A program made the translations under genes and the position numbers. Below are positions 10,876 to 54,346 of a stretch of 64,000 bases of DNA, piece after piece. The notes below the pieces were generated by a model that saw only the letters and a list, made by a program, of their open reading frames with translations, did no database searches and had not been told where the DNA came from. The DNA is from Enterobacteria phage Aplg8: sequence record NC_054902.1; one strand, written 5' to 3'. How positions within the stretch are numbered: position 1 is the stretch's first letter; each line of letters begins with the position of its first letter.

Positions 10876-10909
10876 TTTCTAATCTCCGTAATTCTGTATC
10901 AGTAGTTGA

Positions 10910-10960
10910 TAGTTGTATAGTACCACAGTATGCTTTGGTTGTAAACCGTTTTGTGAAAAA
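10910..10960 (-). promoter_or_regulatory. T4 early promoter for motA
   Basis: - strand GGTTTAC, spacer, GGTACTATAC, with an A/T-rich upstream element. Confidence 0.6.
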
Positions 10961-14214: not shown

Positions 14215-14260
14215 ATAGGGTAATAGTACCACGGAAGAACAGTCTTGTAAACAACTTTTT
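14215..14260 (-). promoter_or_regulatory. T4 early promoter
   Basis: - strand GTTTAC, spacer, GGTACTATTAC; GGAGG ribosome-binding site and ATG follow. Confidence 0.55.
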
Positions 14261-14437: not shown

Positions 14438-14701
14438 TCATAACTCAATCTCAGCGATTTTCATTTCATTACTATTAATAGCCGCTTTAAGACTATCTGA
14501 AAGAATTACATTCCAGTGGTCATTCATATGACCATTAACTAAGCGTGTAATTTCTTCAGGAGTTGAAAAATAAGGCTGATCAGACTCCCAATGCGATAAT
14601 CCTAAGCGAGTATAAATCATGCCTTCATCATCACTAGAATATTCAACTGACACAAACTCATCAGTTATTTTATGTTTAGCGTAATAAAATTTAAATTTCA
14701 T
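14438..14701 (-). CDS. Hypothetical protein, 87 aa
   Basis: Start at MKFKFYYAK... with GGAGAATAAAA ribosome-binding site; downstream of denB. Confidence 0.4.
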   Translation of the reverse strand: MKFKFYYAKHKITDEFVSVEYSSDDEGMIYTRLGLSHWESDQPYFSTPEEITRLVNGHMNDHWNVILSDSLKAAINSNEMKIAEIEL

Positions 14702-14724
14702 TTTATTCTCCAAATCCGTATCAG

Positions 14725-14770
14725 TTGATAGTTGTATAGTACCACGGTCCTTGTGGTACGTAAACTGTTT
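14725..14770 (-). promoter_or_regulatory. T4 early promoter
   Basis: - strand GTTTAC, 17 bp, GGTACTATAC. Confidence 0.55.
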
Positions 14771-15617: not shown

Positions 15618-15632
15618 AATTTTCCTTAGTTA

Positions 15633-22683: not shown

Positions 22684-22778
22684 GTTGTTTTCTGTATCAG
22701 TAGTTGATATTGATATAGTACCATAATCAACTACTGATGTATATAGTTTTATGAAAAAATTTTAAACTTTATGCAAAT

Positions 22779-41714: not shown

Positions 41715-41963
41715 TCAAATGCAAGTAGTAATTACTCCAGTAGTGCTTATGCAGGTATTACCCATTTGCACACCTAAAGATCCATTTGTATTCACATGAA
41801 GATTATCATCAATTTTAACTGATATTTTACCATTAGTGTGAATAACGGTGCTAGATTCAATCACAGGTTGAGTATCATTTTCAACACTAACAAATGGAAC
41901 TGCTGCTAATGCAACTAAACAAACTGCTAAGCATCCCATAACAATTTTCATTTTATTCTCCAA
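41715..41963 (-). CDS. Secreted/membrane small protein, 82 aa
   Basis: N-terminal signal-like hydrophobic segment. Confidence 0.4.
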   Translation of the reverse strand: MENKMKIVMGCLAVCLVALAAVPFVSVENDTQPVIESSTVIHTNGKISVKIDDNLHVNTNGSLGVQMGNTCISTTGVITTCI

Positions 41964-41974
41964 ATCCGTATTAG

Positions 41975-42020
41975 TTGATAGTTGTATAGTACCATGGAAG
42001 AACAGTCTTGTAAACAGTTT
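41975..42020 (-). promoter_or_regulatory. T4 early promoter
   Basis: - strand GTTTAC, 17 bp, GGTACTATAC. Confidence 0.55.
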
Positions 42021-46852: not shown

Positions 46853-47539
46853 TTAAAAATCGTGGGTAGAATCAGCTTCAAGAGCTACTACATAATTCGC
46901 GTGTTCACCTTCAAATTTAGCAGCACCTTGTTTACCTTTTGCCCAGAGCAGAAGTTTATAATTTCCTGGTTGCATTTTCATATTTGCCATATTGATAATG
47001 AAATTAAATGTATTTTCACCATCATAATCACCAAGAGTCAAAGAATATTTAACACGGGTAAGAGCAGAATCTTCTACTTTATTAAAACCGTTAATTACGA
47101 TTTTACCTTCTTTTACCGTGATAGCAATTGTATCAATCTGCAGACCACGAGATACACGCAACAGCTGTTGAAGGTCTTCAGCTTTAATTTCAGTAACAAC
47201 AGATGCTACCGGGAATGGAATTGGTTTATTAGGAGCAACTACTGTACTCGGATCGGCTGCTGGCCAAAAAATTGTTGAACGGGCATCAGCAATTTTAATA
47301 TTACCATCTTCTGACTGGGAAATTTCTGCATCGTCATTAACTAGAGACAGAATACCGAGAAAACCGTTCAAATCGTAAATCGCTACATCAAAATCAATAG
47401 TGTCAGAAATATTTGCTTCCGCATAAGTTGTACCATTAACTGCGCGAGTCATAATAAATTGACCGGATTTAAGCATAATACCAGAGTTAATAGTAGCGAA
47501 ATTTTTAAGCAGAGCAGTAGTATCTTTAGACAGTTTCAT
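46853..47539 (-). CDS. 45: Sliding clamp gp45
   Basis: 228 aa, same as T4 gp45. Confidence 0.9.
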   Translation of the reverse strand: MKLSKDTTALLKNFATINSGIMLKSGQFIMTRAVNGTTYAEANISDTIDFDVAIYDLNGFLGILSLVNDDAEISQSEDGNIKIADARSTIFWPAADPSTVVAPNKPIPFPVASVVTEIKAEDLQQLLRVSRGLQIDTIAITVKEGKIVINGFNKVEDSALTRVKYSLTLGDYDGENTFNFIINMANMKMQPGNYKLLLWAKGKQGAAKFEGEHANYVVALEADSTHDF

Positions 47540-47594
47540 GTAATTTCCTTCAATTCAAATGAGATTTAATTTTATAACTAATTTAATAAAGCAA

Positions 47595-47984
47595 TTAACG
47601 ATTAAAATCAGCCGCAATTGTTTCCGCAACAATTTGAGCAGCAACAATTAGACGTTCATCTGCATTACCACAATAATCATCTTCAAGGCGTTCACCACAT
47701 GAAGTCATAATAAATTTAGCACCGGCGTTTAGAGATTCTGTAGTATGTTTGCGCATTAGTTCAATCCATTTATTACTTACTTCACGATCGATAGCTTCAT
47801 AATACGCATGACGAGCAGGTGCAGATTTAATTTTGTTCTGAATAACTTCCATTGCGTTATCAGAAAGAGACAAAACCCATGCTCGACGGATTTTATTTTG
47901 GTTTTGTGGATTTGATTCAGAACGCACGTGTTTTGGCTGAATATCTTTTACATCAACAGTATAATTCACAGTAATTTTAGTCAT
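47595..47984 (-). CDS. rpbA: RpbA RNA-polymerase-binding protein
   Basis: 129 aa, same as T4 RpbA; position upstream of 45. Confidence 0.7.
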
Positions 47985-47993
47985 AATACACCT

Positions 47994-48185
47994 TTAGTCA
48001 TAATAATCAGTAACAGTCCAAGCTTCATTTCTATTGGACATTATTTTTGTATATTCTGCTTTAAATGCATTCCTAAGCATATATTCAGTAACTATATGCT
48101 CTTCATTAGAAAAATTATTTCTCAGAATATATCGTTTTATTTCAGGAAAAGTTAATAGATGCTGTCCAGTTGAATATTCTGCCAC
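47994..48185 (-). CDS. Hypothetical protein, 63 aa
   Basis: ORF between 46 and rpbA. Confidence 0.4.
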   Translation of the reverse strand: MAEYSTGQHLLTFPEIKRYILRNNFSNEEHIVTEYMLRNAFKAEYTKIMSNRNEAWTVTDYYD

Positions 48186-48195
48186 AGTTCCTCCG

Positions 48196-48203
48196 TATAA
48201 ATA
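48196..48203 (+). promoter_or_regulatory. T4-type late promoter (TATAAATA) upstream of the + strand HNH ORF
   Basis: Exact TATAAATA about 34 nt upstream of the ATG at 48237. Confidence 0.5.
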
Positions 48204-48236
48204 TGTTTATCACTCGCTGTATCAAAAGGATATGTT

Positions 48237-48953
48237 ATGAATTATAAACTAATTTATGAAAAGTTAATCTCTAATGCTAAATCTCGAAAACTTGATTGCT
48301 ATACTGAATCTCATCACATTATACCACGCTGTTTAAATGGCAGCGATGATGCCTCAAACTTAGTAGATTTAACACCAGAAGAGCACTATGTAGCTCATCA
48401 ACTTTTAGTAAAAATTTATCCTTCTGAACCAAAATTAGTCTATGCTGCTAACATGATGACAGTTTCCACGAAATACGCTAAACGTAACAATAAAACTTTC
48501 GGTTGGATTCGTCGTAAACTCTGGGAAATAGAAAAGAATAAAGAATTCTCCCAGGAGACACGAAAGAAAATGTCTGATGCAGTAGCTAATAAAGCAAGAC
48601 TAACTTGTCCACATTGCGGTAAGTCCGGATTAAGCGGGAATATGAATCGATGGCATTTTGATAACTGCCCGAATCACCCTAATCCTAAAGTTAGACCACC
48701 GATGTCTAAAGAACACAGAAATAATATCTCAAACGGGCTTAAAGCAATCATTCTTGAAGAAACATCCTGCGAATTCTGCGGAATGATAGGCAAGAAATGC
48801 GTTATCGCAGCGCATAGAAATTTCTGCAAGAAAAATCCAAATGGACGCAAGAAAACTGAAAAGACTGGTACTTGCGTCCATTGTGGTAAAGTTACCACTT
48901 TCGGAAATTTATCAAGATGGCATAATGATAACTGTAAATATAAACCTAGCTAA
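48237..48953 (+). CDS. HNH-family (homing) endonuclease-like protein with three C-terminal zinc-finger-like repeats
   Basis: 238 aa; HNH core ESHHIIPRCLNGSDDASNLVDLTPEEHYVAH; three repeats of C-x2-C-G...RWH.DNC...NP (from CPHCGK, CEFCGM, CVHCGK); opposite strand to its neighbours; its stop overlaps the gene 46 stop. Confidence 0.6.
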   Translation: MNYKLIYEKLISNAKSRKLDCYTESHHIIPRCLNGSDDASNLVDLTPEEHYVAHQLLVKIYPSEPKLVYAANMMTVSTKYAKRNNKTFGWIRRKLWEIEKNKEFSQETRKKMSDAVANKARLTCPHCGKSGLSGNMNRWHFDNCPNHPNPKVRPPMSKEHRNNISNGLKAIILEETSCEFCGMIGKKCVIAAHRNFCKKNPNGRKKTEKTGTCVHCGKVTTFGNLSRWHNDNCKYKPS

Positions 48954-50634
48954 TCTTAGCTAAACTAAATCTACCAACTTTTTCCATTTGAATATGCTGA
49001 CCATATTCTTGTGGGTCATGGTCTTTATGCGAAATTATGAAGAAGTTGGTATCCTTCAAACCATCTAAAATTTTAGCTACATTTTTAATACCTTCAGCAT
49101 CAAATGCACCGTCATACACTTCATCAAGAAATAAACAACTTATTTTAACACCTGAAACTTTTTCAGCAATATCACGCCAAGTAAATAAAAGAGCAATATC
49201 AATTCGTGCTTTTTCACCTTGACTGAATGAAGCATAACTAAAATCTTCACGACCACGGGATTTAATTGTCTCATTAAATTCTTCATCTAATGTAAACACA
49301 TAATCCGCTTCCATTATTTTAAGATAATGGTTAATCTGCTTATTAAATAATGGAATGTACTTTTTAATAATAGCACCTTTAATACCAGAATCTTTGAGCA
49401 TATCAGTCAAAATTCCTCGGTGGTATTTTTCCATTACTAAATTAGTTTTTGTCTTAACAATTTTATCAAGTTCTTCTTGAAGCAGTGCTATTTCATCAGC
49501 ATGGTCAATAAACTCAGAAGATGCTTTTTCTATAGCTGCTTTAACTTTTTTAGCTTTATCTACCGTCGTGATTAGAGATTGCTTTTTATTGCGAATATCA
49601 TTTGCCAACGACTGCTGAGTTTTAATATTATCTCGGTATTCATCAACAAGAACTTTTAAATTATCACGGTGTGTTGAAAGCTGTTCAAACGAATGCGTAC
49701 ATTCAGAAACTTTATCTTTAATTTTAGAAACAACTTTATCACCGGAACTTAATTGTGACAAGCAGGTTGGACATAATCCACCTTCGTGATACATATTAAT
49801 GACTTTATTATACGAGTCAATTTTTGATTTAATTAAAACTGCTTCTTGACCGATTTTATTAAATGCATCAGTCGGGTCTTCATCCAAAACAATATTAACT
49901 AATCTTTCATTAGCTTCTTCTATTTCCGATTTTAGCGTTCTAGCTTCTTTTGCCAAATCATCATACATATTTTGTAGACGAGTAAGGTTGTCACCCGTTA
50001 ATTTTTTCTGGCGTTCAACGTTATCATTATATATTTTAATTTGTTGGATAATACTATCTTTTTTAACATCAAGCACTTGGTTTTGTGAATTTAATTCACG
50101 TATTAGTGCTTTATTAAGCTTATCCATTTCAGCTAATGTTCCTACCTCAAGCAGGTCTTCCACAAGCTTTCTTCGCGCAGGGGTCGACAAACCCATGAAA
50201 GGGGTATACCCTGCTGTACCAAGGACAACAATCTGCTTGAAACTGGCATATGACATTCCGATAAGCTGTTCAAATTCTGCTTGGAAATCTTTACTGCTGG
50301 CAGATTCATTAAGACGTGTACCGTTAACGGTGATTTCGAAAACGTTTGGTTTTTGTCCTCTTTTGATATAGTACTTTTTCTCATCATATTCCATCCACAA
50401 TTCAACTAAAAGTTCTTTCTTATTTGTGCTGTTTATTAATTGACCTTTCTTTACATCACGAAATGGCTTGCCAAAAAGCCCAAATGTGATGGCTTCTAAC
50501 ATAGTAGACTTACCACCGCCATTTCGTCCAGTAATAAGAGTTTTTTGAACCTTATCTAATTGAATGTCAACTCCATTTTGACCAACTGACATTATATTTT
50601 TATATTTTACTCTATTAAGTTTAAATGATTTCAT
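48946..50634 (-). CDS. 46: Recombination endonuclease subunit gp46 (Rad50/SbcC-like)
   Basis: 562 aa; Walker A GRNGGGKST, zinc hook CPTC, signature and D-loop at the C-terminus. Confidence 0.9.
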   Translation of the reverse strand: MKSFKLNRVKYKNIMSVGQNGVDIQLDKVQKTLITGRNGGGKSTMLEAITFGLFGKPFRDVKKGQLINSTNKKELLVELWMEYDEKKYYIKRGQKPNVFEITVNGTRLNESASSKDFQAEFEQLIGMSYASFKQIVVLGTAGYTPFMGLSTPARRKLVEDLLEVGTLAEMDKLNKALIRELNSQNQVLDVKKDSIIQQIKIYNDNVERQKKLTGDNLTRLQNMYDDLAKEARTLKSEIEEANERLVNIVLDEDPTDAFNKIGQEAVLIKSKIDSYNKVINMYHEGGLCPTCLSQLSSGDKVVSKIKDKVSECTHSFEQLSTHRDNLKVLVDEYRDNIKTQQSLANDIRNKKQSLITTVDKAKKVKAAIEKASSEFIDHADEIALLQEELDKIVKTKTNLVMEKYHRGILTDMLKDSGIKGAIIKKYIPLFNKQINHYLKIMEADYVFTLDEEFNETIKSRGREDFSYASFSQGEKARIDIALLFTWRDIAEKVSGVKISCLFLDEVYDGAFDAEGIKNVAKILDGLKDTNFFIISHKDHDPQEYGQHIQMEKVGRFSLAKIS

Positions 50635-50649
50635 TTTGTATCCAATTGT

Positions 50650-51504
50650 TCACAATGAAGAAAATTCTTTAACTAAAGCCTGTAATGAAGCCTCTATTGG
50701 ATATCCATTCTTAACTAACATTTTCCTAAACATTACATGTTTAGGACGATTATATGATATCCACAATTCATACAATTTATCTTTATTATCCCAATGATAG
50801 CCTTTTCGTCGAGATGCTATATGAGCTTTTCTAATCTCCGGATTTTTCCAACTAGCAGCTACTGAATTTGATATAGCTATTTTATATTCAGGTTTTGATA
50901 AAGCAGCACGAACAGCCTTTTGGTGTTTAATTTTATTTTCTTCGTTATTAAACCATTCCCTTGAAGCCATTGAAATTTTTTGTTTTGTTTTAAAATTATT
51001 TAATCTTTCTTTATTATCTTTCCTATTTTTTGCTACTGAAAAATATTTTAATGCCCTTTCTCTAGCAGCATTTCTATTTTGCGGATTTGAATAATACTGT
51101 TGAAGCCTTTTTGATATTGTGTCACTTACATCTTGTTTTATAAAACTATATTCAGCAGCTATTAAATCAACTTCGGCTAAAGATAAATTTTTATATGTTT
51201 TTCCTGACATCATTCTATTTAAAGCATTTAGCATTTTTCCATTTTTACCTTTTGCTAATAAGAAGTGTGCTTTAAAATGATTAAAATGACTTAAATTAAC
51301 TAAATTCCATGTAGATTTTAAATATTCAGGAAATATTGATTTAGGAAGCACGTGGTGTGCTTCCGTTTTACCTGGAGTTTTAACAGTTGAATTCACAGAA
51401 ATAAAATTAATGTAAGACTTGGCGTCTTCTTCACTCAACGCTAATTTTTCAACTAATTCCTTTATTAAAAATTCATCATTAATGTCAAGTTTAAAATTCT
51501 TCAC
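50650..51504 (-). CDS. HNH-family (homing) endonuclease-like protein, apparent GTG start
   Basis: 284 aa; HNH core EAHHVLPKSIFPEY...NLVNLSHFNHFKAH; basic repeat-rich C-terminal half; AT-rich; first 12 codons duplicate the 5' end of the upstream small ORF. Confidence 0.55.
   Translation of the reverse strand: MKNFKLDINDEFLIKELVEKLALSEEDAKSYINFISVNSTVKTPGKTEAHHVLPKSIFPEYLKSTWNLVNLSHFNHFKAHFLLAKGKNGKMLNALNRMMSGKTYKNLSLAEVDLIAAEYSFIKQDVSDTISKRLQQYYSNPQNRNAARERALKYFSVAKNRKDNKERLNNFKTKQKISMASREWFNNEENKIKHQKAVRAALSKPEYKIAISNSVAASWKNPEIRKAHIASRRKGYHWDNKDKLYELWISYNRPKHVMFRKMLVKNGYPIEASLQALVKEFSSL
51470..51488 (-). repeat. Direct repeat copy A (aattcatcattaatgtcaa) at the 5' end of the HNH ORF
   Basis: 19/19 identical to 51673-51691, with about 10 of 15 flanking matches; encodes (L/F)DINDEF. 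Confidence 0.8.
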
Positions 51505-51716
51505 AAAAGATTCCTTTTAATGTATCTTTTAGACCATTCTATCATATCATCATAATCTAAAAAGTATTCATCAAATTCAGCCATGCAAACAACGCCTTGT
51601 GCTGTTTTTGATGTAATATAAATTATTCCAACATATCTAGAATCTTCTTCGGTATAATCAATGTTTGCTATGAATTCATCATTAATGTCAAATGTCGAAA
51701 ACTTCACAGTATGCAT
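51501..51716 (-). CDS. Hypothetical protein, about 71 aa
   Basis: ORF from MHTVKFSTFDINDEF...; shares its 5' sequence with the HNH ORF. Confidence 0.4.
   Translation of the reverse strand: MHTVKFSTFDINDEFIANIDYTEEDSRYVGIIYITSKTAQGVVCMAEFDEYFLDYDDMIEWSKRYIKRNLL
51673..51691 (-). repeat. Direct repeat copy B (aattcatcattaatgtcaa)
   Basis: See copy A at 51470-51488. Confidence 0.8.
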
Positions 51717-51951
51717 CCTTAATACAAGATACAGCCATATCTCGTAATGATTTAGGTGTGTCATTATCTAAAATGTTGAAGTTAAAAGATACAGCCCAGT
51801 CAGTGCAGACTGTAACCTTTTTAATACAATTATCTTCAACTTCTAGCGGTTCAAACCAATATTCAATAATTTCTTTATGCCCAATATCATCTTTTACTTC
51901 GCATTCAAAATGCTGACTCATCATGACATCTTTAAATTCATCAAAAATCAT
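51688..51951 (-). CDS. Hypothetical protein, 87 aa
   Basis: ORF immediately downstream of gene 47. Confidence 0.4.
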   Translation of the reverse strand: MIFDEFKDVMMSQHFECEVKDDIGHKEIIEYWFEPLEVEDNCIKKVTVCTDWAVSFNFNILDNDTPKSLRDMAVSCIKDAYCEVFDI

Positions 51952-52967
51952 TGTGTTGCCTCTACATATAACTGATTTGCATATTGAATAAGTGCTTCAC
52001 GATCAGAATCAGTGATGTCTGGAATTGCATTAATGTATTCTTCCATTAACGTCTGAAGAGATTGAACTTCAACTTCTTCACTGTCATCTGACTCGACAGA
52101 GTTATCAATCTTTGACACAACTCGTAATGAATGCACAACTTTTTCTAGTTCAGATTCGAACTTCGTCAGATTTTTGTCTACCTCAGTTACTATAACACGT
52201 ACTGATAGATTTGTAAAATCTTTATAGTCAATTTTTCCTTTAAATGGATAATGAATTCTACGATGCCAGGTAGTGTTGTTTGGAATAAATTCCATTCGTT
52301 CTGTTTTTGTATCAAACATCCAGAACCCGCGAGGGTCATTCTCGTCACCTGCAGTTAGTGTCCATGGTGTCCCAATATATCTGACGTTAGCAGCCTCAGA
52401 GATAGTATGGAAGTGACCAGACCACACTTCTTTATAAGTCTTAAGGAAATCAGGTTCAAGACCGTGAGATTTCATTCCTTTATAAAAATAAAATCCATTC
52501 AGTTCCCAGTGACCAACACAAAAAGAAGCAGAAGAAGTTTTTATGTGCTCGAGAATTTCACCAGTATTTTCTTCACACATCCAAGGAATTAAATCAATTA
52601 AACATCCGTCAAAATCTACTGTAGTAGGCTTATCATATACTTTAACATTAGGATATTTAGCCAAAAGCTCAGTAGAGGCATTTGGAGTTAAAGTATTTTT
52701 AAAGTGCATATCATGGTTTCCTACAACAGTATGCAGGGTAATACCAGCATCATCAAGCATTTGAACTATTTCACGAGCGAACTCCATAGTTTTATGTGTG
52801 ATTGCTTTTCGCACATCAAAAATATCACCATATTGAATCCAGGTAGTAATTCCATTTTTCTTAGAATATTCTATTGCTTGTTTAATTCCATCTAACTGAA
52901 TGGATTGAACCCACTCATCATCGGCTTTAACGCCTAAATGCCAATCACCTAAATTTAAAATTTTCAT
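51948..52967 (-). CDS. 47: Recombination nuclease subunit gp47 (Mre11/SbcD-like)
   Basis: 339 aa, same as T4 gp47; phosphoesterase motifs (GDWHLG, GNHD, GHFH). Confidence 0.9.
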   Translation of the reverse strand: MKILNLGDWHLGVKADDEWVQSIQLDGIKQAIEYSKKNGITTWIQYGDIFDVRKAITHKTMEFAREIVQMLDDAGITLHTVVGNHDMHFKNTLTPNASTELLAKYPNVKVYDKPTTVDFDGCLIDLIPWMCEENTGEILEHIKTSSASFCVGHWELNGFYFYKGMKSHGLEPDFLKTYKEVWSGHFHTISEAANVRYIGTPWTLTAGDENDPRGFWMFDTKTERMEFIPNNTTWHRRIHYPFKGKIDYKDFTNLSVRVIVTEVDKNLTKFESELEKVVHSLRVVSKIDNSVESDDSEEVEVQSLQTLMEEYINAIPDITDSDREALIQYANQLYVEATQ

Positions 52968-53104
52968 ATATCAAGAACCGTCATTGAAATGCAAAATAAA
53001 ATTATTGAAATAAACCCATCTGGTGTGCTAAAGAAACCAATCCAGCATGCTCTAGTGAATAGATAAAATGCGAGAAAAAGTATCACATATCCAAGAAATA
53101 TCAT
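52964..53104 (-). CDS. Small membrane protein, 46 aa
   Basis: Hydrophobic ORF; TGA overlaps the gene 47 ATG (ATGA). Not in the ORF track. Confidence 0.3.
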   Translation of the reverse strand: MIFLGYVILFLAFYLFTRACWIGFFSTPDGFISIILFCISMTVLDI

Positions 53105-53127
53105 TATATCAAACTCCGTATAAAGCT

Positions 53128-53145
53128 AAAGGGCCGAAGCCCTTT
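53128..53145 (-). terminator. GC-rich tetraloop hairpin at the 3' end of agt
   Basis: aaagggccgaagcccttt followed by a T/U-run. Confidence 0.5.
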
Positions 53146-54346
53146 ATTTTGTAATAATGTCAAACTGTTCTTTAAAGCAGAAGCTTGAATCTTGATGCTG
53201 ATACAAAAATTCATAAGCTTTTTCGCGTTCACGGTCATAAAGAGTTCGGTCAGATGACAGTTCTTTAATACGTTCAAACGTTGATTCCATGTCATTTTCA
53301 TCAAACCAAATGATACCGCTATCATGCGAGGTCAAAGGAGTATTATCAACACGGAATTTTAAATTTTCGCCAGTAGATTTCCAAAATACCGGAATTGTTC
53401 CACATGCACCAAGCTCGAGATGAGTATATTCTAAAGAACGTTGTAGATATTTTTTATCCAACTTACTCAACTGATAACCAAATCCGGATTTACTCATGCG
53501 TTCAAGCATTTCGCTATTTACATAACGGTCAAGAATTTGCGTTGGCAAATTAGGAGCAATTTTAATTTGGTCTACTTGATGAAGACGATAATACTCGTAT
53601 GGAATTCCTTTTTCTTTAATAGGAATGAACGCTGGAGAACGTTCCAGACCTTCCATAATAGTACTTAGTCCTGCAGGTTTAAGATGTTTTTCATGAAAAT
53701 CAAACATCTGATAAAAACCTTTCCATGTAGTCGTACGACCAATCCAACGGTTGATATTCATGTTAATTTCAGAAACATCTTTCCAGTAGGTTGACCGAAC
53801 CTTCGCAATATCCATAGGAGGCTGAAAGTTATATACTGTCGGTGCTTCTTCAATATCATCAAACAGAGAAACTGTTTCAGGATACCATTCTTTCATCAGA
53901 ACTTTATTAAAATCACCATTATCAGAATGGCTAAAAATAACATCAGCTCGACGAACAGTTTCTTCTAATCCCAAATTTCGGCGCAAAGAAAGAGAAGAAT
54001 GGTCATGTTGATAAACTACAACACGAACCGAAGGTTTAATGTTATCAATAATTTTTTTATAGTTATTAATAGTGTCTTCTTCAACCGAAGTAGCAGGAAC
54101 TGAATTGATAATTAGAATATCACAATCATTTACCAGCTTAAGTGTTTTATCATATTCTTTTGCCAATAAAACCGGAATTGAAAATGATTTATAATCATGC
54201 GCGCAATTACGAGTAAATGATTTATCTTTAGCATAAACCAAAGTTACTTCATGACCATTCTTAATAAACCAATCACGTTGCTCAAGAGAAAATTTAGTTA
54301 CACCACAACCTTCAAGACCTCGAGCCATAAAAATACATACTTTCAT
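53144..54346 (-). CDS. agt: DNA alpha-glucosyltransferase (hmC alpha-glucosylation)
   Basis: 400 aa, same as T4 AGT; MKVCIFMARGLEGCGVTKF... near-identical to T4 AGT as recalled. Confidence 0.9.
   Translation of the reverse strand: MKVCIFMARGLEGCGVTKFSLEQRDWFIKNGHEVTLVYAKDKSFTRNCAHDYKSFSIPVLLAKEYDKTLKLVNDCDILIINSVPATSVEEDTINNYKKIIDNIKPSVRVVVYQHDHSSLSLRRNLGLEETVRRADVIFSHSDNGDFNKVLMKEWYPETVSLFDDIEEAPTVYNFQPPMDIAKVRSTYWKDVSEINMNINRWIGRTTTWKGFYQMFDFHEKHLKPAGLSTIMEGLERSPAFIPIKEKGIPYEYYRLHQVDQIKIAPNLPTQILDRYVNSEMLERMSKSGFGYQLSKLDKKYLQRSLEYTHLELGACGTIPVFWKSTGENLKFRVDNTPLTSHDSGIIWFDENDMESTFERIKELSSDRTLYDREREKAYEFLYQHQDSSFCFKEQFDIITK

Follow-up and report, generated by a model that had tools for sequence, protein, structure and literature searches.

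What kind of gene is the reading frame that stands before gene 46 of Enterobacteria phage Aplg8, and how can such a gene enter this place while its neighbours on both sides stay whole? A first-pass annotation of the window, by which we mean the whole stretch of 64,000 nucleotides analysed here (from NC_054902.1), had proposed that a free-standing HNH homing endonuclease gene was dropped between genes 46 and 47 and left a direct repeat behind as a recombination scar.

The endonuclease gene and its product

The features first needed are the gene, the two regions of its product and the host gene.

50650..51504, minus strand: endonuclease ORF, 284 aa (ORF list, phrog_655 match, tblastn to MobD)
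51253..51366, minus strand: HNH core, residues 47-84, TEAHHVLPKS...NLVNLSHFNHFKAHFLLA (invariant residues, AlphaFold2, BLASTP)
50803..51084, minus strand: basic helical-repeat C-terminal region, residues ~141-234 (AlphaFold2 helices, pLDDT ~90-96)
48946..50634, minus strand: gene 46, the host gene, Rad50/SbcC-like recombination nuclease subunit, 562 aa (ORF list, annotations of relatives)

The ORF is present on the minus strand as first annotated, and it is indeed richer in AT than gene 46: its GC content is 0.284, against 0.329 in gene 46 and 0.351 in the 64-kb window. In a profile search, the family phrog_655 ('homing endonuclease') matches residues 1-282 with an E-value of 7.8e-45, and the RefSeq label of the gene is likewise 'homing endonuclease'. 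Comparison with the Mob enzymes, which the first-pass annotation had recommended, gives 30% identity to MobD over residues 47-281 (tblastn, E 2e-11), matches to annotated mobD genes with E-values from 2e-11 to 3e-13 (tblastn), and 74% nucleotide identity over 165 nt to mobC-annotated genes (blastn).

The HNH core noticed at first reading (EAHHVLPKS...NLVNLSHFNHFKAH) is borne out by conservation. H50, H51, P54, N67, H76, A79 and H80 are invariant in alignments of 7, 37 and 41 homologues, and five of them, H50, H51, N67, H76 and H80, form the His-His...Asn...His/Asn...His motif of the HNH family. AlphaFold2 places a strand at residues 47-51, another at 68-72 and a helix at 73-84, and a mobB-like endonuclease in the same window has an HNH motif, TESHHIIPRC..NLVDLTPEEHYVAH, that aligns to this core in BLASTP (E 2e-5). 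With the window protein itself, a Pfam search at E<=1 gave no HNH match and only two sub-threshold non-HNH matches, an NCBIfam search gave zero matches, fold searches with the AlphaFold2 models gave no significant HNH match, and no solved structure was matched by sequence or by fold. Among the 37 aligned homologues, Pfam finds HNH (PF01844) in 24 and HNH_5 in 9 (E<=0.01), NUMOD3 in 15 and I-HmuI_NUMOD-like in 5, the window protein having neither of the last two. Residues 1-10 are predicted by AlphaFold2 to be unstructured, while the basic helical-repeat region in the C-terminal half is presumed to bind DNA. This helical-repeat half, with a tail of the form YHW..LY..W..N.PK, is shared by the window protein only with its homologues at the gene-46 locus in Mosigvirus and Gelderlandvirus.

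An intron or intein context was considered and rejected. An Rfam scan of 47500-53500 at E<=1 found no group I or group II intron or other family, apart from two chance snoRNA-like matches, and gene 46 follows downstream as a complete 562-aa ORF; therefore the endonuclease gene is regarded as free-standing, outside any intron or intein. Judged from its sequence, it is a free-standing Mob-type HNH homing endonuclease gene at the 5′ end of gene 46, as had been supposed, with one departure from the free-standing type, namely that its ORF is fused to six codons of the host gene.

The insertion inside gene 46 and the 19-nt repeat

How the gene sits between its neighbours is read from the following features.

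51501..51707, minus strand: gene 46.1, intact, 68 aa, DUF5487 (Pfam PF17589, E 4e-49; same extent in T4)
51673..51691, minus strand: repeat copy A, gene 46.1 codons 6-12, the source copy (also in T4 and IMG/VR relatives)
51470..51488, minus strand: repeat copy B, TTGACATTAATGATGAATT, endonuclease codons 7-12, DINDEF (exact 19-mer of copy A)
51487..51504, minus strand: T4-type gene-46 start GTGAAGAATTTTAAACTT, now endonuclease codons 1-6, MKNFKL (18/18 against T4)
50617..51486, minus strand: cassette absent from T4, 870 nt (comparison of window and T4)
50617..50634, minus strand: cassette-borne replacement gene-46 start ATGAAATCATTTAAACTT, MKSFKL (window sequence and ORF list)

T4 lacks the endonuclease ORF both in its annotation and in its sequence, as the first-pass annotation had supposed, and the cassette is missing from the six IMG/VR relatives L009-L014 as well. 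Alignment of the 46-47 interval with T4 brings out the expected insert, with its boundary not in intergenic DNA but between codons 6 and 7 of a T4-type gene 46. T4 reads ...AGGAATCTTTTGTGAAGAATTTTAAACTT/AATAGAG at this place (the slash marks the junction), while the window follows T4 through AAACTT and continues with GACATTAATGATGAATT..., the endonuclease gene, and ...ATGAAATCATTTAAACTT/AATAGAG. An imperfect direct repeat (13/18) with an exact 9-nt core, TTTAAACTT, flanks the insert, and owing to it the edges of the cassette can slide by up to 9 nt.

The first 18 nucleotides of the endonuclease ORF are identical to the T4 gene-46 start in 18/18 positions, to gene 46.1 in 12/18, and to the window's own gene-46 start in 13/18, and the Shine-Dalgarno sequence of the endonuclease, AAGGA at 51512-51516, matches the T4 gene-46 ribosome site. 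Therefore, the insertion lies inside gene 46 and is not simply intergenic. The ORF is in frame with the resident ribosome site, GTG and six codons of gene 46, and because of this fusion its start codon (GTG, 51504-51502), from which the predicted product begins MKNFKLDINDEF..., overlaps the TGA stop of gene 46.1 as GTGA. At its other end the cassette carries, behind a 15-nt spacer (ACAATTGGATACAAA, 50635-50649), a new ATG and six codons, so that gene 46 stays whole. The first 15 nt of this replacement start equal the gene-46 start of RB69 and differ from T4 at 5/15 positions. As a side observation, the 3′ tail of the cassette (EFMRKNL) resembles the C-terminus of gene 46.1 (YIKRNLL) and might derive from it, but the similarity is mostly ribosome site and AT-rich spacer.

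The direct repeat itself is exactly as first described, 19/19 nt with partial identity around it: over 45 nt that include the repeat, the two places are 78% identical. By chance, exact 19-mers are expected about 1.3e-4 times in 1.8 kb and 0.16 times in the whole window. Copy A lies inside the DUF5487 profile match, which begins at profile position 1; the real start of the small upstream gene is GTG 51707, not the ATG at 51764 assumed before. Both copies stand in equal register to their GTG starts, and endonuclease codons 7-12 are an in-register copy of gene 46.1 codons 7-12 (17/18 nt), downstream of which identity falls at once to 8/24. The earlier statement that the first 12 codons copy the 5′ end of the small gene is accordingly to be narrowed to codons 7-12, while codons 1-6 are those of T4 gene 46.

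A drop of the gene into an intergenic 46-47 site, with its first 12 codons duplicated from gene 46.1, would fit the 45-nt stretch, which includes a shared GTGAAG, as well as the absence from T4. We hold it to be very improbable: the first six codons and the ribosome site go with gene 46, the overlap of the 46.1 stop and the 46 start (GTGA) in T4 leaves no intergenic space, and the cassette holds a second gene-46 start, so that the comparison of T4 with the window already contradicts it. Still less credit can be given to the idea that the 19-mer is a selected functional signal at both ORF starts, such as a translational operator, a downstream box or a -35 element. It does include TTGACA, and both copies lie at +17 to +35 of GTG-AAG starts, but RNA folds at both starts are no stabler than shuffled ones (z -0.07 and -1.58), a promoter scan missed both copies, the endonuclease copy of T2 is already substituted to GATATT, and the 19-mer is absent from homologues in other genera. 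The repeat is best read, as it was from the beginning, as a recombination scar.

Carriers among phages and the patch in gene 46

The gene is not rare. Among about 515 Tequatrovirus records, these being the ones that match the flanks at 95-99%, it is carried by about 69, namely T2, T6, RB51, PP01 and some 65 others, with 97-100% identity. Several copies are broken, with frameshifts in T2 (a 2-nt deletion), RB51, RB68, G2133 and MLP2, the copies of RB51 and RB68 matching in two pieces, and at the gene-46 locus RB51 and T2 have unannotated or split pseudogenes. Presence in some and absence from other near-identical genomes, along with degenerate copies, is the pattern of the Mob family; it may also mean that the element is largely inactive today, as several of its carriers hold broken copies. 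Ac3, with 71% nucleotide identity, was considered as a divergent lineage of the endonuclease and rejected, since the difference is a recoded stretch in the record and not a natural variant.

Homologues with 44-56% identity occupy the 47-46 interval in Mosigvirus (G2469 and nine other records) and Gelderlandvirus (Melville, SEA1 and CF-SP2). In Mosigvirus, the first seven codons of gene 46.1 form the front of the endonuclease ORF: the ORF of G2469 starts with MTKTDYE, which is codons 1-7 of RB69 gp46.1, and the DNA is identical up to there. In Melville, the endonuclease ATG takes the position of the 46.1 start of S16 and overlaps the stop codon of gene 47.

What else distinguishes carriers from non-carriers? 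Just downstream of the cassette, gene 46 holds a short dense patch of substitutions.

50571..50617, minus strand: 'type I' substitution patch, gene 46 nt 18-64, codons 6-22 (comparison with the type II allele)

The window differs from the type II allele at 14 positions in nt 18-64 and at 6 in the next 828 nt. The same contrast of carrier and non-carrier gives 12 differences in the patch and 13 in 828 nt for G2469 against RB69, and 24 and 53 for Melville against S16, so that carriers of all three genera have a dense patch at nt ~18-64; positions 34, 51, 55 and 56 are altered in all three pairs. Between the window and Melville, identity is 81% in the patch and 69% elsewhere. On the side of 46.1-47, no comparable co-conversion patch was found, only scattered SNPs. 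Type I is present in every carrier among the matches listed and type II in about 366 records, while about 78 records, including T4, have type I without the endonuclease, an association counted over related genomes and not over independent events.

A co-conversion tract or immunity polymorphism beside the gene is what a Mob endonuclease is supposed to have, and the patch is linked to the endonuclease gene in three genera. We infer that it is a co-converted immunity patch overlapping the target of the endonuclease, the immunity itself being part of the inference; which allele is the target and which is immune is read from linkage only.

It may be asked instead whether the arrangement of T4, type I without endonuclease, was the ancestral target, the patch being ordinary lineage variation unrelated to immunity and type II having entered Tequatrovirus from Mosigvirus-like phages. 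The type II patch peptide is that of RB69, with 81% identity to RB69 in the patch against 77% elsewhere, and the endonuclease-free type I records would find a natural place; given these records, the type I patch could be the older state in Tequatrovirus. On the other hand, it is again in this short stretch, and at the four positions named above, that carriers in Mosigvirus and Gelderlandvirus differ from congeners without the endonuclease, and Melville shares 24 identical nucleotides with T4 in the patch region while the rest of its gene 46 is only 69% identical. Such a pattern across genera is difficult to account for if the patch does not move together with the endonuclease gene, and we take an ancestral T4 arrangement to be unlikely.

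A possible route of homing and its meaning

How would such a gene be expressed, and how would it move? A promoter of its own was rejected, as the minus strand has no late promoter TATAAATA close by, and sigma-70-like sites near the endonuclease are not enriched over shuffled sequence. Regulation by RNA structure or a hairpin was likewise rejected, as folds around the starts of the endonuclease and gene 46 are indistinguishable from those of shuffles.

A precedent is MobE of T4, a promoterless HNH homing endonuclease encoded between nrdA and nrdB, which nicks nrdB downstream at nt 122-126, and whose carrier is protected by a polymorphic region at nt 114-131 of nrdB (Wilson and Edgell, 2009; PMC2790892). 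Both enzymes have an N-terminal HNH domain followed by a variable C-terminal DNA-binding part, both genes lie directly upstream of an essential or conserved gene and are patchy among T-even phages, and the window gene, like mobE, would depend on upstream transcription. The layout is also the same: the target of MobE maps to the 5′ region of the downstream gene, where carriers have a short polymorphic stretch thought to block self-cleavage, as the patch at gene 46 nt 18-64 might do. MobE differs in its locus (nrdA/nrdB and not 46.1/46) and in being intergenic, whereas the window ORF is fused in frame to six codons and a ribosome site and its cassette duplicates codons; the window enzyme, moreover, is known here from sequence. 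MobD, MobB and MobC belong to the same PHROG family (phrog_655) and their HH..N..H..AH motif aligns with that of the ORF through the window's mobB-like endonuclease, but they are only 20-35% identical to it overall and occupy other genomic sites.

Intronless endonuclease genes are also found interrupting coding sequences, as mobE does in nrdA of Aeromonas phage Aeh1 and mobA between genes 39 and 60 of T4. In these cases, too, an HNH gene lies inside a coding sequence for replication or recombination and the host function is kept. The difference is that their host is split into two polypeptides, while here only six codons are detached, and as these are duplicated the host protein remains undivided; the original start signals pass to the endonuclease. 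The intron-encoded HNH nicking endonuclease I-HmuI of Bacillus phage SPO1 resembles the window protein in that a long helical DNA-binding region of the NUMOD type comes after its HNH domain, the I-HmuI_NUMOD-like domain being the one found in 5 of the 37 homologues; the window gene differs in not being in an intron.

The reading we find probable, with considerable reserve, is therefore MobE-like intronless homing at gene 46, with the type II allele as target, the patch as immunity and the repeat as the scar of an unequal crossover. The endonuclease gene, presumably without a promoter of its own, would be expressed from the early/middle transcript of 47-46.2-46.1 through translational coupling. 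In a mixed infection, the putative nuclease would nick or cut the common type II allele in or near the patch, and repair from the carrier genome would copy both the patch and the endonuclease gene, as with MobE, the carrier being protected by its type I patch; its cleavage site and biased inheritance are equally putative. As for the scar, in an earlier Tequatrovirus allele the endonuclease is proposed to have replaced gene 46.1 while keeping its first 12 codons, for which the fusion with seven codons of 46.1 that Mosigvirus still shows provides a model. This intermediate might have undergone an unequal exchange with a genome free of the endonuclease, its start codon pairing with that of gene 46 there, and the crossover would have restored a full 46.1 upstream and left codons 7-12 as the scar. 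The empty site of T4 with its type I patch would then derive from a carrier allele, by deletion between the TTTAAACTT repeats or by conversion of the patch only.

Does the proposed intermediate, with the gene order 46.2, endonuclease (bearing 12 codons of 46.1 at its front) and 46, exist among present-day phages? It was found neither in GenBank phages, IMG/VR (searched by protein and by exact pattern) and JGI metagenomes (exact-pattern scan) nor in ENA/Logan contigs, where contigs with the exact endonuclease protein show a single context. A chimeric query of 328 nt was covered to at least 80% by 69 records of GenBank phages, and the 60 carriers among the matches listed all align to it in two pieces, with an identical span of 531 nt. 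Such absence would be expected if no fusion intermediate ever existed in Tequatrovirus and the insertion was a single illegitimate step with templated filler: a break at codon 6/7 of gene 46, whose invading end copied 17-19 nt from the 5′ end of 46.1, 203 nt upstream, and then switched to the endonuclease donor. The shortness of the copied piece, its place exactly at the junction and the abrupt fall of identity past it also agree with this route. However, the copy comprises codons 7-12 in both genes, as homeologous pairing of start against start predicts and random template switching does not, and Mosigvirus has a real N-terminal fusion of 46.1 and endonuclease; we thus regard templated filler as rather improbable and keep to the unequal crossover.

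It might even be, though we put this forward only as a conjecture with somewhat less than an even chance, that the endonuclease belongs to a lineage which, in three or more genera of Tevenvirinae, has become specialised for the 5′ end of the phage Rad50 gene, its start codon always placed on the start signal of a resident gene (46.1 in Mosigvirus and Gelderlandvirus, 46 in Tequatrovirus), and that the first 22 codons of T4 gene 46 are the fossil immunity patch of an endonuclease gene that was lost or never fully acquired. If so, the phages with type II, about 70% of sequenced Tequatroviruses, would be susceptible as targets, the naive, invaded, decayed and lost-but-immune stages of homing would be seen together at one locus, and a selfish nuclease would be aiming at the gene for a part of the gp46/47 complex, which is thought to process homing breaks.

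These results leave the general picture of intronless homing as it was. They would add to the classical phages T2, T6 and RB51 a well-defined but uncharacterised homing endonuclease, with a predicted target, type II gene 46 at nt ~18-64, and a predicted resistant allele that is borne by T4 itself. For annotation, carriers and non-carriers differ in where gene 46 truly begins. And for the life of such elements, the case shows how a free-standing endonuclease gene can invade a coding sequence and leave the host protein undivided, by taking over its start signals and bringing spare first codons along.

An insertion inside gene 46

The window belongs to a T4-like genome of the genus Tequatrovirus, and PhiZZ23, RB51, RB68, PP01 and CM8 match a 1.8-kb query around the 284-aa ORF at 99.1%. 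The ORF itself, its HNH-like core and a direct repeat, all reported in the first-pass annotation, are present, and its greater AT-richness relative to gene 46 is borne out, if modestly (GC 0.284 versus 0.329; window, 0.351).

Genes at the locus
51948-52967, minus strand: gene 47
51688-51951, minus strand: gene 46.2 (Pfam T4_Y03C)
51501-51707, minus strand: gene 46.1 (GTG start; DUF5487, E 4e-49)
50650-51504, minus strand: 284-aa ORF, the endonuclease gene under study
48946-50634, minus strand: gene 46

How does this ORF sit among its neighbors? In T4 the gene-46 start overlaps the 46.1 stop (...AAAAGGAATCTTTTGTGAAGAATTTTAAACTT joined to AATAGAGTAAAATAT). The window is identical to T4 through AAACTT and then continues as GACATTAATGATGAATTTTTAATAAAGG... 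into the 284-aa ORF, so that the ribosome site, the GTG and the first six codons of the ORF (MKNFKL) are the gene-46 start of T4 (18/18 nt; only 12/18 for 46.1). Codons 7-12 (DINDEF, 18 nt) copy gene 46.1 at 17/18, and the next 24 nt agree at only 8/24. Thus, the claim that the ORF opens with 12 codons copied from the small gene was half right, since only codons 7-12 derive from 46.1. A second gene-46 start, ATGAAATCATTTAAACTT (MKSFKL), lies 15 nt past the ORF stop, and beyond it the sequence meets T4 again at AATAGAG. Compared with T4, therefore, an 870-nt cassette holding the ORF and the replacement start separates codon 6 from codon 7 of gene 46, and its earlier placement between genes 46 and 47 was imprecise. 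An imperfect direct repeat of 18 nt, exact over a 9-nt core (TTTAAACTT), flanks the cassette.

Other repeats are scattered in the window. The palindrome TAAAGGGCCGAAGCCCTTTA, a GC stem with a tetraloop, occurs at 15632, 46833, 53127-53146 and 56767, one copy being immediately downstream of a-gt, and is probably a recurrent intrinsic terminator placed between early genes. Distant sites share several exact 17-26-nt repeats (10892-10910, 14696-14729, 41946-42000, 14233-14237, 22690-22693), among which AGTTGATAGTTGTATAGTACCA recurs at 10904, 14723 and 41973 and TTTCATTTTATTCTCCAAATCCGTAT at 14696 and 41946.

Two endonuclease genes beside gene 46

The product of the 284-aa ORF matches phrog_655 'homing endonuclease' (E 7.8e-45), and its tblastn identity to annotated MobD genes is about 30% (E 2e-11 to 3e-13). 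A profile search gave 2432 relatives, many with NUMOD3; alignments of as many as 41 homologues show no variation at H50, H51, P54, N67, H76, A79 and H80. Pfam matches among 37 aligned homologues are to HNH (24/37), NUMOD3 (15/37) and I-HmuI_NUMOD-like (5/37); the protein itself does not reach the Pfam and NCBIfam HNH models. AlphaFold2 models (pLDDT 86-87) put two strands and a helix exactly over the motif and leave residues 1-10 unstructured. The motif aligns with TESHHIIPRC...NLVDLTPEEHYVAH of a mobB-like protein encoded nearby. On sequence grounds, we call the 284-aa protein an HNH Mob-family member. No intron or other RNA family was found at the locus. An 8-9-bp GC-rich hairpin (GGAAGCAC...GTGCTTCC, 51344-51364) lies over the EAHHVLP codons of the motif and was scored terminator-like on the plus (antisense) strand; an internal terminator has been reported for MobE, a T4 endonuclease.

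The mobB-like HNH homing-endonuclease gene (238 aa; 48237-48953, plus strand, between 45.2 and 46) belongs to the same family (phrog_655, E 1e-68). It shares 8 nt with the 3' end of gene 46, and a perfect T4 late-promoter box, TATAAATA, stands 41 nt upstream at 48196-48203. Since T4 and an ENA contig (L015) lack it at the corresponding site, two endonuclease genes flank gene 46 in Aplg8.

Start regions and the origin of the repeat

Homologues of 44-56% identity occupy the 47-46 interval in ten Mosigvirus records (e.g., G2469) and several of Gelderlandvirus (Melville, SEA1, CF-SP2). In G2469 the endonuclease replaces 46.1, and its start, MTKTDYE, is the first seven 46.1 codons of the endonuclease-free Mosigvirus RB69, the DNA being identical up to there. 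In Melville the endonuclease ATG takes the place of the S16 46.1 start and overlaps the gene-47 stop. As judged from the layouts of Aplg8, G2469 and Melville, the endonuclease start codon is on the start signal of a resident gene in all three genera.

The repeat is an exact 19-mer, TTGACATTAATGATGAATT, at 51470-51488 and 51673-51691, inside a 45-nt stretch of 78% identity. Base composition predicts about 1.3e-4 such repeats for the 1.8-kb region and 0.16 for the window, so it is not due to chance, and a regulatory function is unlikely. Its codon register is the same in the 284-aa ORF and 46.1, consistent with two start regions having paired unequally. In an older allele the endonuclease may have been fused to codons 1-12 of 46.1 (Mosigvirus still shows seven codons), and the start region of that allele would have paired with that of gene 46 in a genome lacking the endonuclease. 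A crossover at TT of nt 17-18 would then give the observed layout, in which a complete 46.1 is followed by 18 nt of gene 46 and then by codons 7-12 of 46.1, fused to the endonuclease. The alternative, that a one-step templated insertion made the repeat, is still live because the fusion intermediate predicted by unequal pairing was absent from every collection searched. The feature first annotated as a recombination scar is real and is a scar, left by an event different from the one guessed.

A linked patch, and proposed homing at gene 46

Codons 6-22 of gene 46 exist as two alleles among endonuclease-free Tequatroviruses. Type II is found in about 366 records, type I without endonuclease in about 78, and carriers number about 69; every carrier among those listed has type I.

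Alleles of the gene-46 patch
Type I (T4): ...CTTAATAGAGTAAAATATAAAAAT...GGTCAAAATGGG
Type II: ...CTAAACCGAGTTAGGTATCAAAAT...GGTGGAAATCCT

Differences between a carrier and a non-carrier of the same genus
Window vs type II: patch nt 18-64, 14; next 828 nt, 6
G2469 vs RB69: patch nt 34-66, 12; next 828 nt, 13
Melville vs S16: patch nt 9-63, 24; next 828 nt, 53

All three pairs differ at positions 34, 51, 55 and 56, so that Q12 becomes K or S and G19 becomes Q. Between the window and Melville, identity is 81% in the patch, with 24 consecutive identical bases, versus 69% elsewhere. No comparable patch was found on the 46.1-47 side. Thirteen records (e.g., MT611523.1, DK-13) are only 60-80% identical to the type II gene-46 query, which suggests at least a third patch allele among Tequatrovirus-like phages.

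MobE has no promoter and nicks nrdB, the gene downstream of it, at nt 122-126, and a polymorphic region in its carriers is thought to prevent self-nicking (PMC2790892); the 284-aa ORF and the gene-46 patch match this layout. For the 284-aa ORF we found no late promoter, no excess of sigma-70-like sites and no regulatory hairpin, and we therefore propose that it is expressed from the 47-46.2-46.1 transcript via coupling at the GTGA overlap. In the mechanism that we infer, the enzyme would attack the type II allele of gene 46 in the patch or close to it, repair off the carrier genome would transfer patch and endonuclease gene together, and the type I allele would be immune. The empty type I site of T4 would go back to a carrier allele, through repeat-to-repeat deletion at TTTAAACTT or through patch-only conversion.

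The endonuclease gene is present in about 69 of about 515 Tequatrovirus records, including T2, T6, RB51, RB68 and PP01, always with identical junctions. The T2 copy (about 2100 of its record, L005) has lost 2 nt near codon 205 and is thereby split into two ORFs, and two-piece matches indicate frameshifts in RB51, RB68, G2133 and MLP2; all five copies are decaying. The original annotation of RB51 has no gene there. In phage Ac3 (OK040907.1), from 1462-2410 onward, the endonuclease gene and gene-46 start are only about 71% identical in nucleotides, and the endonuclease GTG is GTT. The differences are almost all synonymous toward E. coli-preferred codons (TTA to CTG, AGA to CGT, AAT to AAC) and the upstream DNA is identical; the segment looks like synthetic recoding or an assembly artefact rather than natural divergence.

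RefSeq labels the gene 'homing endonuclease', and the one 'other HNH' gene that a 2010 census gave to each of T2, T6 and RB51 (PMC2993671) is probably the same. The review of mobile elements in T4 that accompanies the census leaves the 46/46.1 locus unmentioned (PMC2988022), and our literature search found no paper describing this gene. This uncharacterised element belongs to a well-known class; databases annotate it, and T2 and T6 carry it. What is new is the takeover of a start signal, the fidelity to one site across three genera and the linked patch, and these details lead to directly testable predictions.
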